In this document: piece after piece, positions 1-64,000 of the stretch
Layout: every line of letters begins with the position of its first letter
How positions within the stretch are numbered: the first letter of the stretch is position 1
DNA from: Spirochaetia bacterium
Lineage (GTDB): Bacteria > Spirochaetota > Spirochaetia > DSM-2461
Length of the DNA stretch: 64,000 bases
NCBI GenBank assembly: GCA_963666985.2
Contig: CAXXIA010000002.1
Location: 1,856,001-1,920,000, forward strand
Direction: 5' to 3'
Made by a program: the position numbers

Positions 1-3000
1 GAGGGTATAAATGCAAATGTTTTCCGATCAATTTCTCCTAATCTTAAATTGTCAAACCAGACGGTAAAAGTCTCATCTTCATTTTCTCGAAGACCAACTT
101 GGTATCCAACAAAGACATAACTGACGAAAATCCTGTGTCGGTCTATGGTCACCGCCCCACGATTATTTATCATTCTCACCTCATATCCGGATGGATAAAT
201 CACCTGTGGAATCTGAGAAGGGAAGGGCCGTTTGGACTTTGTGTAAACACTTCCGGGAGTCTGCATTTTAAGAGCTTCATGAGGTCGAACACTGTTGAAC
301 TGATTTCTCCAGACATCAAAATGCGCCTGATGTTCAGAGAGGTTACCCTGAATCTGTCCCTGTAATTCCCGTTTGATATCGGCATGCATTCTCTCATGCC
401 CCCCGTTCTCACAAGGTCGTCCCGGAGTGATGCGATCAAGTTCGATTCCCAAGGCCAACCACCAAACACTTAAGCGTGTGAGCCCCAGCAGTCCCTTCAT
501 GGAGGCAAAGGGAGGTCCGTTGTCGGACCTAATGACTCTGGGCATTCCATAGATGGAAAAGAGCTTCTCAAACTCGGTTCTAACTTCTTGTGTGTCAGCC
601 TTTTGGAGTGCTTTGATGGTAAAGATGTATTTGGAAAACTCATCCCGAACGGTCAAAGGTTCACATCGTTCTCCCTCGGGAGTATACCACCAGCCTTTGA
701 AATCCACGGTCCAGATGTCATTCGGCTGCTTGGCTTGAAGACGGCTCTGGATTCGCTGAGATTTATTCTGCCGGCGTTTCTTTCGGTGCACTACCAGACC
801 TGCTTTATCCAGGATGCGTTTCACGGTGGTCAGACTTGGACTCTCCTGGTGGGGATGTGTCTTCTGGTAGATATCGAGGATTTTCTTTGGCCCCCATTTG
901 GTGTGTCGTGATTTGATTCGGACGATGTCGCAGATGACATTCTCCGGTGTCTGGTGAGGGCAGATACGAGGTTTCCTGGTTCTTTCATTCAGGCCGGCGA
1001 GCCCTTCCTGAATAAACCGGTTTTTCCATTTAAGGCCTGTCGGCCGGGAGATCCCGTACTCAGCACAGAGGTCTTTCATACAGACATGGGGATCCATGGC
1101 CTTGAGGGCGAACTCGAATTTGACGTCCATAATATTGGTCTCCTTCCACGGCATAATCAGCACCTCGATAAGGGAAAGTACTGATCATTTTAGTCCTTGT
1201 CGTGTAAAGGATGTCCTGGTACTCTCGTGTAAACGATGTCGTGGACCCGTACCAGGTTCAATAGTGAAAGAAGTAGTAGCCACGGCCGCAATAACGAAAA
1301 TCCTTCAGAATCTTGAAAGAATTTATAAAGAAGTCAGCGAAGAATGGAAAGCACAAACAGGTGAAAAAATAAATAATTACTTAACTACGTTTCTTCAGAA
1401 GAACAGTGAAGTAAAAACAATTCTACATGGAAATCAACCCAAACCATTTTACGATGTATACTTCCCTCTGCGACTATCGTGTAAAGATAGAATAGTCCCA
1501 GATAAAAATGTTGAGAACATTTTCAAGATACGAAATACACTTATCGTTTCGGCTGAAGCTGGAAGTGGAAAAAGTATGCTTGCAAAGCATCTCTTCATAG
1601 ATGTAATTGAACGATGTTATGGAATTCCTTTTATTATTGAACTTCGATATTTAAACGAAACAGAAACAAAGTTAGAAGATTATATATTTGAACAGGTCTC
1701 AAAGCATGTAACAAGTTCAGAAAGAGTATATAAAAGATTGCTTGATAGGGGAGAATTCATTTTCTTTCTTGATGGATATGATGAAGTGAAAAAAGAGTTA
1801 AAGCAAAAAACAATAATGGGAATAAAAAACATAAATGAATTATACCCAAATATAAAATTGTTTATATCTTCACGACCATATACAAATATCGACATGCTTC
1901 AAAATTTTCAAACACTTGAAATTTGCCCTCTGGATGAAGAAGAAATAGTCGGATTTATAAAAAAACAAATTGACGATGAACAGCTAGCTTCTCAAATGTG
2001 CTCTTCAGTCAATGTTGCAAGAAAGTCGAAGATATCCAGCTTTTTACAAAATCCTTTATTATTAACTCTATATATACTGACATATCAAAACAGTTCAGAA
2101 ATCCCAGGTCAAGCATCTCTGTTTTATCGAAGAGTTATAAATGCTCTTTTTATCGAGCACGATAGCAAGACGAAATTTGGCTATCAAAGGGAAAGAGTCA
2201 GCAAAGTATCATATGATAGATTTGAAGACGTTATGAAGAAATTTTCAATCGTTTCTTTTTTTGACGACAAAATATCCTTTGACTATGAATATGCCCGTAA
2301 ATTAATAGGGCAAATAATCGACAATGATGAAAACTGTAATTTTACTTCTGAAGAATTGATAGAGGATCTTAAACTTGCTTTTTCTCTTTGGGTTGAAGAT
2401 TCGGGCTTTTATTCATTTGCTCATCGTTCAATCCAAGAGTATTTTGCTGCTTTATATATTCGCGATTTAGATGAAGAAAGCAAGCAATCTTTATATAGTC
2501 AGATAGTTGAAAAAATGGACAAATTCACAACCGACATGTACAATCTGTTGTCGATATTGAATGAAATTGATAATATTGCATATTTAAAATATTACCTTGT
2601 ACCAGTTATAAGTGAATATCATAGTTTTTTGACCGACAATCCTGATAATACCTCTTTTCTCTTTTCGATGTTTTCCTTTCATGACTATAAAAAGGAATCA
2701 GTAATTAGAACCTCAATTTCTCTGGCAGGATTCAAGTACTATTTTTTATTAGACAAAGAGAGATTTACTGGTCAAATATTTAAAATCATTGATGAAGAGG
2801 TTATAAAAAAGAATGGCTTTGGAGATTTAGTAAAAAACTCGCATAGAAAGAAACACTACTTGTCAGCTACGAATGTTAGTGAGAAAGGCAAAAAGTACTT
2901 GAATGAATTAGACACACTTTTTTCTGTTCGAAACGAGGTTGTAGCTTATTTGGATAATCTCAAGAAAACCTCAAATGAAGCAATTAGATTTGCTGAGAAG

Positions 3001-63000: not shown

Positions 63001-64000
63001 TTCACCGTTCCAGAAATCACTATTTATGTTATCACTAATATCACAAACTGCTTCAATGAAATCATCGATTGCTTCTTGATTTTCGGTAACATTCATCTTT
63101 ATAGATGAATATGCTTCAAGAAGAATATCTAATTTTAAATTTTGTTTACGAGCTTCTTCAAAACTTTTTGCTAAGGTTGTGTGTATTGAAGTATGAAAAG
63201 TAGTATAATTTAAACCTTTCACCAGGACAGAACCATACCGCTTTGCAACTAATGCACAAGCGGTAAATATCATACGGTGATAGAGATTTTTTATCCCAAA
63301 ATTAAAATGAAGGTTGTTATTAATTCTTGCTGTTATCGTATATATTTTATTTGTATCAATTTTATTTTCTGCGAATAGACTTAAGTAATATTCCTTATTT
63401 TTAAGCTCATCCTCATCTTGTAAGAAGACCCCATTCTTATAAATTTTTACTATGAACCCATTATATAAGATTTCAATATTATTTTTATATTTTATTTCAA
63501 CAATTTTAGTATTTTTAAGTAGCTCATCAATATGAATTTGTTTAAGATCGGTTGTTTCACTTTTCGCTTCTAGAATTATTGCTGGAAAGCTTTTTTCATT
63601 TGGTAAATACCAACCATCAGGTCTGTCGTTTATTCCAGAAAATCCTAATTGATTAAATGTCGTAATTTGGCCCACACCACTTATTGCGGACTCTGTGTCT
63701 TTAAAAGCTAGAATTTTTCCTGCTTTATCTCTTACTTTATCTTCAGTCATAATATTTCATCTCTCATTCTTAAGTCTTTTTCAGGCTCTAAATTTATGTT
63801 TTCTATAGCCAAAATAGAAACTTTTTAATTCATTATTTAATCTCATCCTATCATATTTTTTTAGGATTTTCATTATGTCTATTTTCTGTAAATTTCAATA
63901 TGCATAACATTATATATTATGTACTTTGTCGATAATTCGTAAAAGCTGTATAAAATTGCGCAAAAATGTCATATAAGGAGAATATCAAGTATAAATTATG

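Follow-up and report, generated by a model that had tools for sequence, protein, structure and literature searches.

The working definition of an integron, also the one built into software, demands an integrase that carries the IntI-specific domain, and structural and genetic work deems this domain essential for the recognition of folded attC sites. Can gene cassettes be captured by a recombinase that lacks it? The question is raised by a locus in a Spirochaetia bacterium, where a short tyrosine recombinase is found beside a long array of repeat-ended cassettes. The window analysed is a 64,000-nt stretch of contig C2 (positions 1856001-1920000), and coordinates are those of the window unless C2 or the contig is stated. 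Judged from sequence comparisons, the locus is probably an integron-type gene-capture platform, working or very recently working, with a short integrase devoid of the IntI insertion. The cassette borders, the duplications, the cassette copy at attI and the synteny in relatives support the survey's finding of a sedentary chromosomal integron-like platform run by such an enzyme.

A one-strand array of repeat-ended cassettes

An HMM built from 32 repeats of the window was run over the whole genome with nhmmer and gave 88 matches: 85 on the + strand of C2 1779213-1935843 and three fragments elsewhere. Full-length repeats (83 of the 85) measure 191-269 nt, with a median of 204, and fall into classes of at most 210 nt (66 sites), 224 nt (one site) and 251-269 nt (16 sites); 34 sites start inside the window (Table 1). 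The array extends over 157,787 nt (~157 kb) and comprises 85 cassettes, with a GC content of 0.40 (0.385 in the cargo and 0.52 in the sites); that of the genome is 0.51. Both the large one-strand array of about 85 cassettes and its low GC content had been proposed by the survey and are confirmed here. The three off-locus copies are all truncated; two of them adjoin IS21 copies, and one of these two is cut off by IS21. The repeats match no known RNA family in Rfam, where a search for an attC covariance model retrieved only ALIL.

The cargo includes toxin-antitoxin pairs, restriction-modification, NACHT, TIR and Fic proteins as well as unknowns, a set typical of chromosomal integrons. About half of the main ORFs of the window are antisense to the array, which is not usual in classical integrons. 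The array also contains many IS copies, which fits partial decay and counts against the reading as a working integron. Contigs from sequencing runs contain joints at site borders with short sides (20-55 letters), probably assembly-graph effects of the repeat. In runs from a second organism, cover is limited to the HicAB cassette, the mini-cassette and the sites, and the cassettes between are uncovered; such gaps in contig cover were given no weight as evidence.

Table 1 Features of the 64-kb window, in window coordinates.
Feature	Position	Strand	Evidence or remark
attC-like site, long class, 266 nt	3056..3321	+	nhmmer
attC-like site, 208 nt	4522..4729	+	nhmmer, alignment
attC-like site, 203 nt	5759..5961	+	nhmmer, alignment
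attC-like site, 203 nt	7957..8159	+	nhmmer, alignment
attC-like site, 263 nt	9006..9268	+	nhmmer
attC-like site, 205 nt	14438..14642	+	nhmmer, alignment
attC-like site, 197 nt	15482..15678	+	nhmmer, folding, alignment
attC-like site, 207 nt; first inner hairpin is a different palindrome	16384..16590	+	nhmmer, alignment
attC-like site, 263 nt	19029..19291	+	nhmmer
attC-like site, 197 nt, diverged; AGATG/CATC compensated arm	20339..20535	+	nhmmer, alignment, covariation
attC-like site, 201 nt	21750..21950	+	nhmmer, alignment
attC-like site, 224 nt, diverged	25279..25502	+	nhmmer
attC-like site, 198 nt	28452..28649	+	nhmmer, alignment
attC-like site, 205 nt	29902..30106	+	nhmmer, alignment
attC-like site, 203 nt	32476..32678	+	nhmmer, alignment
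attC-like site, 207 nt	35063..35269	+	nhmmer, alignment
attC-like site, 206 nt	36285..36490	+	nhmmer, alignment
attC-like site, 205 nt; query for relatives and folding example	39251..39455	+	nhmmer, folding
attC-like site, 200 nt	40350..40549	+	nhmmer, alignment
attC-like site, 200 nt	44753..44952	+	nhmmer, alignment
attC-like site, 204 nt	46160..46363	+	nhmmer, alignment
attC-like site, 265 nt	49032..49296	+	nhmmer
attC-like site, 200 nt	52478..52677	+	nhmmer, alignment
attC-like site, 206 nt	55386..55591	+	nhmmer, alignment
attC-like site, 200 nt; final GTT is left edge of the cassette duplicated at attI	56938..57137	+	nhmmer, identity to attI-proximal cassette
Split site, 5' stub AACAGCTGTTGAT	58740..58752	+	divided by IS21-family insertion
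Split site, remainder, model positions 8-207	60949..61203	+	nhmmer
Mini-cassette, 237-nt cargo and 262-nt site; one of 7 dispersed copies	40550..41048	+	duplication analysis
Mini-cassette copy with 262-nt site	49297..49796	+	duplication analysis
Mini-cassette copy with 262-nt site	49797..50297	+	duplication analysis
HicA/HicB toxin-antitoxin cassette with own 200-nt site	41049..42362	+	domain matches, duplication analysis
HicAB cassette, tandem second copy with site	42363..43676	+	domain matches, duplication analysis
Cassette with TIR (ThsB-like) gene, caspase-domain gene and 265-nt site	46364..48192	+	domain matches, nhmmer
MazF/antitoxin cassette with site; cargo 100% identical to cassette 15679-16383	50298..51207	+	domain matches, duplication analysis
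Cassette 74, endonuclease/exonuclease/phosphatase-family gene and 210-nt site	57135..58503	+	domain matches, identity to attI-proximal cassette
IS21-family element (IstA-like and IstB genes) within site; GTTGAT at both ends	58753..60948	-	domain matches, sequence
Cargo: NACHT/STAND NTPase	1096..3039	+	domain matches
Cargo: D12 adenine methyltransferase and DpnII-like endonuclease	6040..7941	+	domain matches
Cargo: PIN toxin and Phd/YefM antitoxin	8252..8877	-	domain matches
Cargo: Mrr restriction endonuclease	19333..20262	+	domain matches
Cargo: Fic/DOC protein	28818..29903	+	domain matches
IS481-family transposase	9351..10544	-	one of 4 related window copies
Three other related IS481-family copies	near 200-1500; 23334-24458; 30188-31381		sequence similarity

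A short recombinase from a clade outside canonical IntI

The recombinase gene (g02875) lies outside the window on the minus strand of C2 (1777133-1777966), divergent from the array and transcribed away from it, with 1.2 kb to the first site. Its 277-aa product matches PF00589 and PF13495 and aligns with VchIntIA in two blocks (17-178/13-180 and 201-273/246-318), between which VchIntIA residues 181-245 correspond to just 22 residues. The integron-integrase model TIGR02249 is matched only at its positions 2-177 and 240-314, with a score of 220 bits, below the cut-off of 265, whereas the XerA model NF040815 is matched with 224.6 bits, above its cut-off of 220. NCBI's name for NF040815 is 'site-specific tyrosine recombinase/integron integrase'. 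The AlphaFold model (pLDDT 84) is without the extra helix, and its best fold match is VchIntIA, followed by XerA structures. Twenty aligned family members are all short (273-290 aa), with no remnant of the IntI insertion seen among them; of the full catalytic R-K-H-R-H-Y set, four residues (R133, K158, H222, R225) never vary and the other two (H248, Y257) hardly do. The alignment, TIGR02249, the structural model and the 20 homologs all bear out the survey's claim that the enzyme is without the IntI-specific insertion. Its claim that the genome holds no other IntI also stood, as a genome-wide TIGR02249 search gave nothing above the cut-off and a canonical IntI was not found in this genome. Separate XerC/D-like genes are present on contig C1.

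The further description of the enzyme as nearest to integron integrases held in part: VchIntIA is the best solved match, but the protein passes the XerA model and belongs to a clade of its own beside canonical IntI. In a maximum-likelihood tree, this spirochaete clade of short enzymes (support 99/95) lies outside the canonical IntI clade (100/100), to which it is sister with weak support (75/41); otherwise it is closest to XerA-like proteins from candidate phyla, which are also insertion-less. A decayed IntI, raised by the survey as a caveat, appears unlikely because the protein passes the XerA model and its clade stands beside, not inside, canonical IntI. Since that model is passed, the recombinase may have a housekeeping Xer-like role, against which speaks its conserved place at the head of arrays.

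Two accounts bear on how a short cassette recombinase could have arisen. It is quite possible that the enzyme derives from an IntI that lost the IntI-specific insertion (I2) secondarily and compensated for it by longer, more sequence-defined arms, in which case the system would be silent on the origin of integrons. The sister position of the short clade and the match to VchIntIA by sequence and fold are consistent with such a loss, and a single loss on its stem and a single gain on that of IntI are equally parsimonious; Smyshlyaev et al. 2021 (PMC8138268) also describe the insertion as 'not fully conserved' in an integron-like subgroup. The short clade is not nested within canonical IntI, however, and the low support for the sister relation, the insertion-less nearest other relatives and the lack of a visible remnant in the 20 aligned members all argue against the loss. 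The other account, which we entertain only tentatively, is that the spirochaete clade is the sister lineage of all integron integrases and never had I2, so that cassette capture at folded hairpin sites cut at G|TT would be the older trait. Just as tentatively, I2 and the extrahelical bases would then be a later refinement permitting short, sequence-free sites.

Site architecture and cassette borders

The sites begin with AAC and end with GTT and, as the survey had described, fold as single-stranded DNA into a stem that is interrupted by bulges and branched at its centre, a structure upheld by both folds and covariation. AAC/GTT and 12-13 cassette-specific base pairs together make an outer helix of 15-16 bp. 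An asymmetric internal loop, with 1 nt on the 5' arm and 5 nt on the 3' arm (e.g. GGAAC), separates this from a conserved inner helix of 11-12 bp (GCnnnT.ATGCG / CGCAT.nnnGC), and the centre is variable, being branched in the array of this genome. Compensatory changes were present at 21 of 32 consensus pairs (34 sites, 7 genomes). By its pairing, the functional site extends past the conserved repeat to include the cassette-specific part of the outer helix beyond AAC/GTT: among 68 distinct cassettes, positions 1-7 are paired in 94-100%, where each of the four types of pair occurs, 40 have C.A at position 8, and positions 9-12 are paired in 87-100%, with the background level reached by position 16.

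When the 16 nt after the GTT of each preceding site were compared with the 16 nt before the AAC of the cassette's own site, the two ends paired at a mean of 12.8 of 16 positions, and at 10 or more in 77 of 83 cassettes. In situ controls gave a mean of 6.4 of 16 (10 or more in 8 of 83), as did 4885 random pairs (mean 6.4 of 16). Each cassette thus opens with the reverse complement of its own last nucleotides, which places the cut at G|TT. Folding favours the excised circle, in which the site is more stable by 10.6 kcal/mol than it is in situ (71 of 79 sites), and the bottom strand folds more stably than the top strand in 72 of 79 sites.

Seven dispersed cassette families, with 2-7 copies each, include four pairs that are 100% identical, and the alignments of all 38 duplicate pairs span exactly GTT to AAC. 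The downstream site travels with the cargo in five of six families (91-100% identity), while the upstream sites are merely 58-75% identical; the exception, which counts against the integron reading, is one family with unrelated downstream sites. Cassette 74 has a copy, 100% identical over 1369 nt, in the cassette nearest to the recombinase gene (contig 1778054-1779422), with the identity beginning and ending at GTT. From the junction there (..GATGAGTT|), 90 nt upstream of the gene, we infer an attI, the point of insertion. In four genomes, the distance between such a junction and the start of the gene is 90-127 nt (100-127 nt in G022, G017 and G033). A simple promoter scan at attI found no sigma-70-like or other promoter-like site.

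Arrays in related genomes

The survey had seen an array in only one of seven homolog flanks. Linkage of gene and array proved stronger than this: among the clade members with at least 1 kb of upstream DNA (n = 7, this genome included), all seven carry a divergent array with the same arm architecture (G000, G022, G017, G033, L037, L038 and L039). Site helices are compensated between genomes, and the own-cassette signature occurs in 19 of 29 cassettes of the relatives versus 1 of 29 controls. These arrays were detected only by an arm-motif scan and by eye; the repeat HMM of the present genome found almost nothing on homolog flanks, and a BLAST self-repeat screen flagged just two of the spirochaete arrays. 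A scan of genome contigs, those of the present genome left out, with the family alignment gave no homolog closer than 45% among the matches listed. Close family members (60-97% identity) sit on short ENA or Logan contigs, and genome G013 has an 86% recombinase fragment, plus arrays on other contigs.

Elsewhere in the same recombinase clade, sites of 72-87 nt and of ~137 nt have the same arms. The extra-long branched sites that the survey took as a hallmark are real here, but their centre is variable and specific to the lineage. As site length within the clade ranges from 72 to ~200 nt, great length marks this lineage alone, and what is truly new is the missing domain.

The relatives also bear on the idea, improbable in our view, that the array is an orphan CALIN-like relic, built by a canonical IntI since lost, and that the short recombinase, as a Xer-type enzyme, serves some other purpose, e.g. 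dimer resolution or integration of another element. The XerA match and the numerous IS insertions would suit this idea, and arrays can persist as orphans, since related long-site arrays without a detectable short recombinase occur in a closed genome (G005, whose integrase fragments are only C-terminal) and in several incomplete MAGs (G010, G004, G007 and G011). Canonical IntI genes exist in the same genus and family; G022, G019 and G014 have both these and the short enzyme, so that help in trans is possible there. Yet the site motif was absent from the scanned flanks of canonical intI genes at four loci (L147-L150, from G022 and G009), and an array sought beside the canonical intI of G022 gave nothing interpretable. 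A relic is also hard to reconcile with a divergent layout in all seven testable members, drawn from several spirochaete lineages, with an identical cassette copy inserted exactly 90 nt upstream of the recombinase gene, and with a genome that has separate XerC/D-like genes and in which no canonical IntI was found. That the repeats themselves are mobile or functional (MITE-like, REP-like or an RNA structure such as a terminator) and spread between pre-existing genes is very improbable, strongly structured and sequence-conserved though they are, given that cargo and downstream repeat duplicate jointly with exact GTT-to-AAC borders, that the first 12-13 nt of a cassette pair with its own end and not with the adjacent repeat, and that all 85 repeats share one strand of one locus beside a recombinase, with just the three truncated copies elsewhere.

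Proposed mechanism and comparison with known systems

If the locus is a gene-capture platform run by its short integrase, the two helices of a folded single strand would serve the recombinase as binding arms, like the pair of arms in the core site of a Xer-type enzyme. The recombinase would cut beside the GTT/AAC triplet and exchange a single strand, with a second site for excision or with attI for insertion. Replication would resolve the product, as it does in integrons and in CTX-phage integration, where XerCD integrates the folded single-stranded attP. The large bulge at the cut, the frequent C.A mismatch at position 8 of the outer helix and the conserved inner helix may replace the I2 helix and the extrahelical bases in choosing the strand and in keeping the second active-site pair silent. 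What makes the site longer is the variable centre only.

In common with sedentary chromosomal integrons, such as the Vibrio superintegron with its VCR sites and the Treponema denticola integron, the locus has a tyrosine recombinase beside an attI-like junction and a long one-strand array in which cargo is followed by an imperfect palindrome from ..AAC to GTT... The G|TT cut, the cassette opening with the partner of its own 5' arm, the homogeneity of sites within an array, the cargo rich in toxin-antitoxin and defence genes, and the shuffling and duplication of copies cassette by cassette are likewise shared. The recombinase differs, as it is without the I2/intI_Cterm insertion and fails TIGR02249, and so do the sites. 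The R box of canonical attC is 7 bp long, against a cassette-specific outer helix of 15-16 bp here. The central unpaired region has 1 nt versus 5 nt, where canonical attC has spacers of about equal size and two or three extrahelical bases (cf. PMC4792948); the bulge pattern of these sites, with two helices, this 1/5-nt loop and a variable centre, is unlike the canonical one. The sites measure 191-269 nt, compared with the 63-132 nt reported for Treponema (PMC3607928).

With Xer/XerA enzymes acting on dif, the recombinase shares its size, domain layout and match to NF040815, and the two helices of ~11-16 bp that flank a short centre in the folded site would resemble the arms and centre of a dif-like core. 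Unlike XerA, it is tied to an 85-cassette array with an attI-like junction and apparently not to one dif of the chromosome, belongs to a separate clade next to IntI, and occurs together with separate XerC/D-like genes. Under the operational definition of an integron integrase given by Cury et al. 2016 (PMC4889954), PF00589 plus intI_Cterm, the locus is without an integron integrase and at best a CALIN; unlike a CALIN, its array is headed by an intact, syntenic recombinase of a dedicated clade, and this holds in 7 genomes. The cases that Cury et al. examined had fewer than three sites. Our literature searches turned up no account of an integrase that lacks the insertion and is linked to an array; related cases may be shown in Supplementary Figures S1 and S5 of the same paper.

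A natural lineage of several genomes, as far as sequences can tell, appears to shuffle cassettes at folded AAC...GTT sites without the IntI-specific domain. Either the domain would be dispensable for the reaction or another site architecture, with long helices and a large bulge at the cut, would substitute for it, and whether attC or I2 came first becomes directly testable with one enzyme and one site. Escudero et al. 2016 asked for a 'functional intermediary form' to resolve this chicken-and-egg paradox; were the clade indeed a sister lineage that never had I2, it would provide such a form, and integron finders would miss a whole branch. Integron surveys probably under-count the cassette reservoirs of spirochaetes, and possibly others too. 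A compact recombinase with long, designable sites is also a potential tool. Finally, the toxin-antitoxin, restriction-modification, NACHT, TIR-caspase and Fic cargo supports the view of chromosomal integrons as defence-gene banks put forward in a preprint (bioRxiv 10.1101/2024.07.02.601686).

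The cassette array and its borders

An HMM built on 32 copies from the window was used for an nhmmer search of the whole 4.86-Mb genome, which returned 88 matches: 85 lay on one strand of contig C2 (CAXXIA010000002.1) and the other three were truncated fragments elsewhere. Full-length sites (83 of 85) measured 191–269 nt, with a median of 204 nt, and fell into length classes of ≤210 nt (n = 66), 224 nt (n = 1) and 251–269 nt (n = 16); 34 sites start within the window, where an IS21-family element splits one more. The array is 157,787 nt long and has a GC content of 0.40 (sites 0.52, cargo 0.385), and the window itself ranges from 0.29 to 0.48 per 2 kb, versus 0.51 genome-wide. 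The number, strand, span and composition of these repeats therefore confirm the survey's finding of a long, low-GC array of same-strand sites.

When an integron is cut at G|TT, each cassette comes to begin with the sequence that pairs with its own 5′ arm. Comparison of the 16 nt following the GTT of one site with the 16 nt ahead of the next site's AAC showed a mean of 12.8 paired positions, with at least 10 paired in 77 of 83 cassettes, versus a mean of 6.4 and 8 of 83 cassettes for in situ controls, and a mean of 6.4 for 4885 random pairs. Across 68 distinct cassettes, positions 1–7 were paired in 94–100%, with all four pair types present, position 8 was a C·A mismatch in 40, and positions 9–12 were paired in 87–100%. 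Own-cassette pairing fell to background by position 16. The functional site thus reaches 12–13 bp past the conserved repeat on each side.

The 85 cargos include seven multi-copy families, each with 2–7 dispersed copies, and four pairs are 100% identical. All 38 pairwise alignments of duplicated cargos began directly behind GTT and stopped directly ahead of AAC. The downstream site moved with its cargo in five of six families (91–100% identity, against only 58–75% for the upstream site), and downstream sites were unrelated in the sixth. The first cassette beside the recombinase gene matches cassette 74 at 100% over 1369 nt, from a GTT that precedes the recombinase start codon by 90 nt, at the predicted attI-like junction, to the GTT of its site. 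Such a duplicate would be the expected product of the insertion of an excised cassette at attI, and the event must be recent. By all four tests of sequence (own-cassette pairing, duplication borders, the co-moving downstream site and the attI-proximal copy), the repeats are recombination sites delimiting mobile cassettes.

The most multiplied cassette, a mini-cassette with seven copies, has a cargo of 237 nt, holding at most an antisense ORF of 54–61 aa with no Pfam match, and is always found with a 262-nt site of the long class. Unlike all other families, a five-copy family (c5, c32, c33, c48 and c67) combines closely similar cargo, 94.5–97% identical and holding a pair of small antisense ORFs that match no family, with downstream sites that are unrelated to one another (197–265 nt, mean identity 76%). 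The sites have been swapped, perhaps by recombination within them.

Locations of features of the array, its cargo and related loci
Feature	Location	Strand	Remarks
Recombinase gene	C2 1777133–1777966	minus	outside window; divergent from array
First cassette beside recombinase gene	C2 1778054–1779422
Same-strand sites of the array	C2 1779213–1935843	plus
Cassette 74	window 57135–58503
Site split by IS21-family element	window 58740–58752 and 60949–61203		GTTGAT repeated at both ends of insertion
IS21-family element	window 58753–60948		GTTGAT at both ends
Mini-cassette	window 40550–41048, 49297–49796, 49797–50297		four further copies outside window
Five-copy family, cargo	window 14643–15481, 48193–49031
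HicAB cassette stretch in X3 and X5 contigs	window 42305–43476
Mini-cassette stretch in X3 and X5 contigs	window 49293–49778
ORF with tandem repeats	window 25577–26485	minus	repeats at 25613–26416
Frameshift signal of IS3 element (Rfam ALIL)	window 27292–27408
Truncated site fragments	C2 2130256–2130403, 2674171–2674263		outside array
Orphan arrays of closed same-genus genome G005	G005 C1 around 1082551–1086068, 582278–584250
Site almost identical to the source-genome type	L037 3411–3610	minus	200 nt; inside L037 array

Predicted fold of the site

Folding of 79 distinct sites as DNA, in their reconstructed excised form, predicted two helices, an outer and an inner one, with a 4–5-nt bulge next to the AAC/GTT triplet and a branched centre. 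Sites were more stable in the excised than in the in situ form, by 10.6 kcal/mol (71 of 79 sites), and folding favoured the bottom strand over the top one by 4.0 kcal/mol (72 of 79), in agreement with the top-strand C·A turning into G·T on the bottom strand. An alignment of 34 sites, drawn from the window, from same-genus genomes (G004, G005, G007, G010 and G013) and from one distant MAG (L037), gave a consensus fold of 32 pairs, 21 of which showed compensatory double changes. Examples include ATGCG/CGCAT versus ATCTG/CAGAT, as well as entirely different palindromes in the first inner hairpin.

A recombinase without the IntI-specific insertion

The 277-aa recombinase at the array head matches PF00589 and PF13495. 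Its top NCBIfam match is NF040815, the XerA-type 'site-specific tyrosine recombinase/integron integrase' (224.6 bits, cut-off 220), while the integron integrase model TIGR02249 matches it in two pieces at 220 bits, under the cut-off of 265. By sequence the best solved structure is VchIntIA (2a3v; 7e-46), in a split alignment in which chain residues 181–245 face 22 residues of the recombinase; archaeal XerA aligns in one piece. In an AlphaFold model (pLDDT 84) the beta-hairpin leads to the next core helix without an extra helix, and Foldseek ranked VchIntIA first and XerA next for this model. The split alignment, the sub-threshold TIGR02249 match and the model bear out the earlier claim that the enzyme lacks the IntI-specific insertion, and no protein of the whole genome exceeded the TIGR02249 cut-off.

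In a collection of 5.8 billion proteins the recombinase heads a family of ~20 clusters (60–97% identity), all 273–290 aa long, without the insertion and with catalytic residues kept. The next relatives, at most 46% identical, are XerA-like and come from candidate phyla and DPANN archaea.

Short recombinases adjoin arrays in relatives

DNA for flank inspection was available for 12 members of the spirochaete clade of short enzymes, of which five (G002, G014, G019, L042 and L043) lie 44–388 nt from an upstream contig end and were not counted. All seven with readable upstream DNA had a divergent array directly upstream: the source genome, G022, G017, G033, L037 (a Spirochaetaceae MAG), L038 (a Marispirochaeta MAG chromosome) and L039 ('Spirochaetes bacterium GWE1'). 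The survey's count of one array among seven inspected flanks is thus superseded. The seven arrays share the site layout AAC-N-[10–12-bp helix]...[helix]-N5-GTT, with helices compensated between genomes (GCTGTT/ACCAGC, GCAAAT/ATTTGC, GCGAAT/ATTCGC and GCCCATAAGA/TCTTATGGGC), and in five of them the own-cassette signature was found in 19 of 29 cassettes versus 1 of 29 controls. In four genomes the predicted attI junction lies at a distance of 90–127 nt from the start of the gene, and these junctions have in common a CGCATA/GGATAAG...GTT-like arm. The 23-mer arm motif, for which a simple calculation gives ~0.005 chance occurrences per 20-kb locus, was not found in four loci flanking canonical intI genes (L147–L150).

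One site in the L037 array is almost identical to the source-genome type; the L037 recombinase is only 45% identical, and the other sites of that array differ in size (the first an estimated ~164 nt). It suggests that lineages exchange cassettes and that their sites are cross-recognised. In the same array, two sites end in GAT rather than GTT.

The array and its recombinase form a genuine platform of the integron type, one whose integrase is non-canonical, and the short enzyme is probably the cassette recombinase. It had been proposed that a short IntI acting on extra-long branched attC sites characterises the system. The integrase is indeed short, but sites across the seven arrays measure 72–87, 125–143, 164 and about 200 nt, and a centre that is extra-long and branched is particular to the genus rather than essential to the system. 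The platform works like an integron, yet fails one defining feature, the IntI-specific domain: in the definition of Cury et al. 2016 (PMC4889954), IntI requires PF00589 and intI_Cterm. Sections of Wu et al. 2013 (PMC3607928) describe Treponema integrons with 63–132-bp sites and none in other spirochaetes. Full-text searches of the literature, confined to main articles, turned up no account of an insertion-less integrase linked to an array.

Several observations cut the other way. In five same-genus genomes, including the closed G005, long-site arrays occur but no short recombinase was detected. A canonical IntI with the insertion coexists with a short-clade member in G022 (L147), G019 (L159) and G014 (L158), and an array of its own was looked for in G022 and not found. 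A scan at attI detected no promoter-like site, and the window's main ORFs run antisense to the array in about half of the cases. The array also holds a disproportionate share of the IS copies in the genome (IS481, 9 of 12; IS3 types, 4 of 6 and 3 of 5; IS21, 3 of 8).

In G005 the two orphan arrays of the long site family are small, with only C-terminal fragments of an integrase, and are a decayed version of the system. The two integrase types in G022, G019 and G014 lie on different contigs or 1.9 Mb apart.

Phylogenetic position of the short enzymes

Only matches whose alignment covered at least 230 query residues were kept for tree building. Two trees, a quick one with 119 rows and a careful one with 88, agreed; 31 rows (21 XerC/D-like, six close family members and four near-duplicates) were left out of the latter. 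Canonical IntI (20 rows, including those of the same spirochaete family) formed one clade with support of 100/100, and the spirochaete short enzymes a separate one (19 rows, 99/95); the two were sisters in the maximum-likelihood tree, with weak support (75/41). A secondary loss of the IntI-specific domain is possible, and its ancestral absence is somewhat less likely. Smyshlyaev et al. 2021 (PMC8138268) call the insertion 'not fully conserved' within their integron-like subgroup. Escudero et al. 2016 (PMC4792948) present the I2 domain and the extrahelical bases as products of co-evolution and raise a chicken-and-egg paradox, which 'functional intermediary forms' would resolve.

Cargo and insertion sequences

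Cargo in the window includes toxin–antitoxin genes (PIN/Phd, MazF twice, HicAB twice, ParE and a CopG-like antitoxin), defence-like genes (a NACHT NTPase, a D12 methylase with a DpnII-like endonuclease, Mrr, a TIR-ThsB gene with a caspase-domain gene, and Fic), LysM-Ntox44, GNAT, an epimerase, an EEP-family nuclease and many proteins without family. Large chromosomal integrons usually carry genes of these kinds.

Of the three truncated fragments of sites that lie outside the array, two adjoin identical IS21 copies, one being cut off by such a copy and the other lying ~0.9 kb from one. At least five tandem 126-nt repeats lie inside a minus-strand ORF with weak beta-propeller/LVIVD matches, which is a repeat protein gene and is adjoined by an IS3 element. 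In runs X3 and X5, both the HicAB cassette (about 95% identical) and the mini-cassette are present on contigs of a second organism/study, and the cassettes between these two had no cover; these data, which consist of contigs only, hint that single cassettes are shared between strains.
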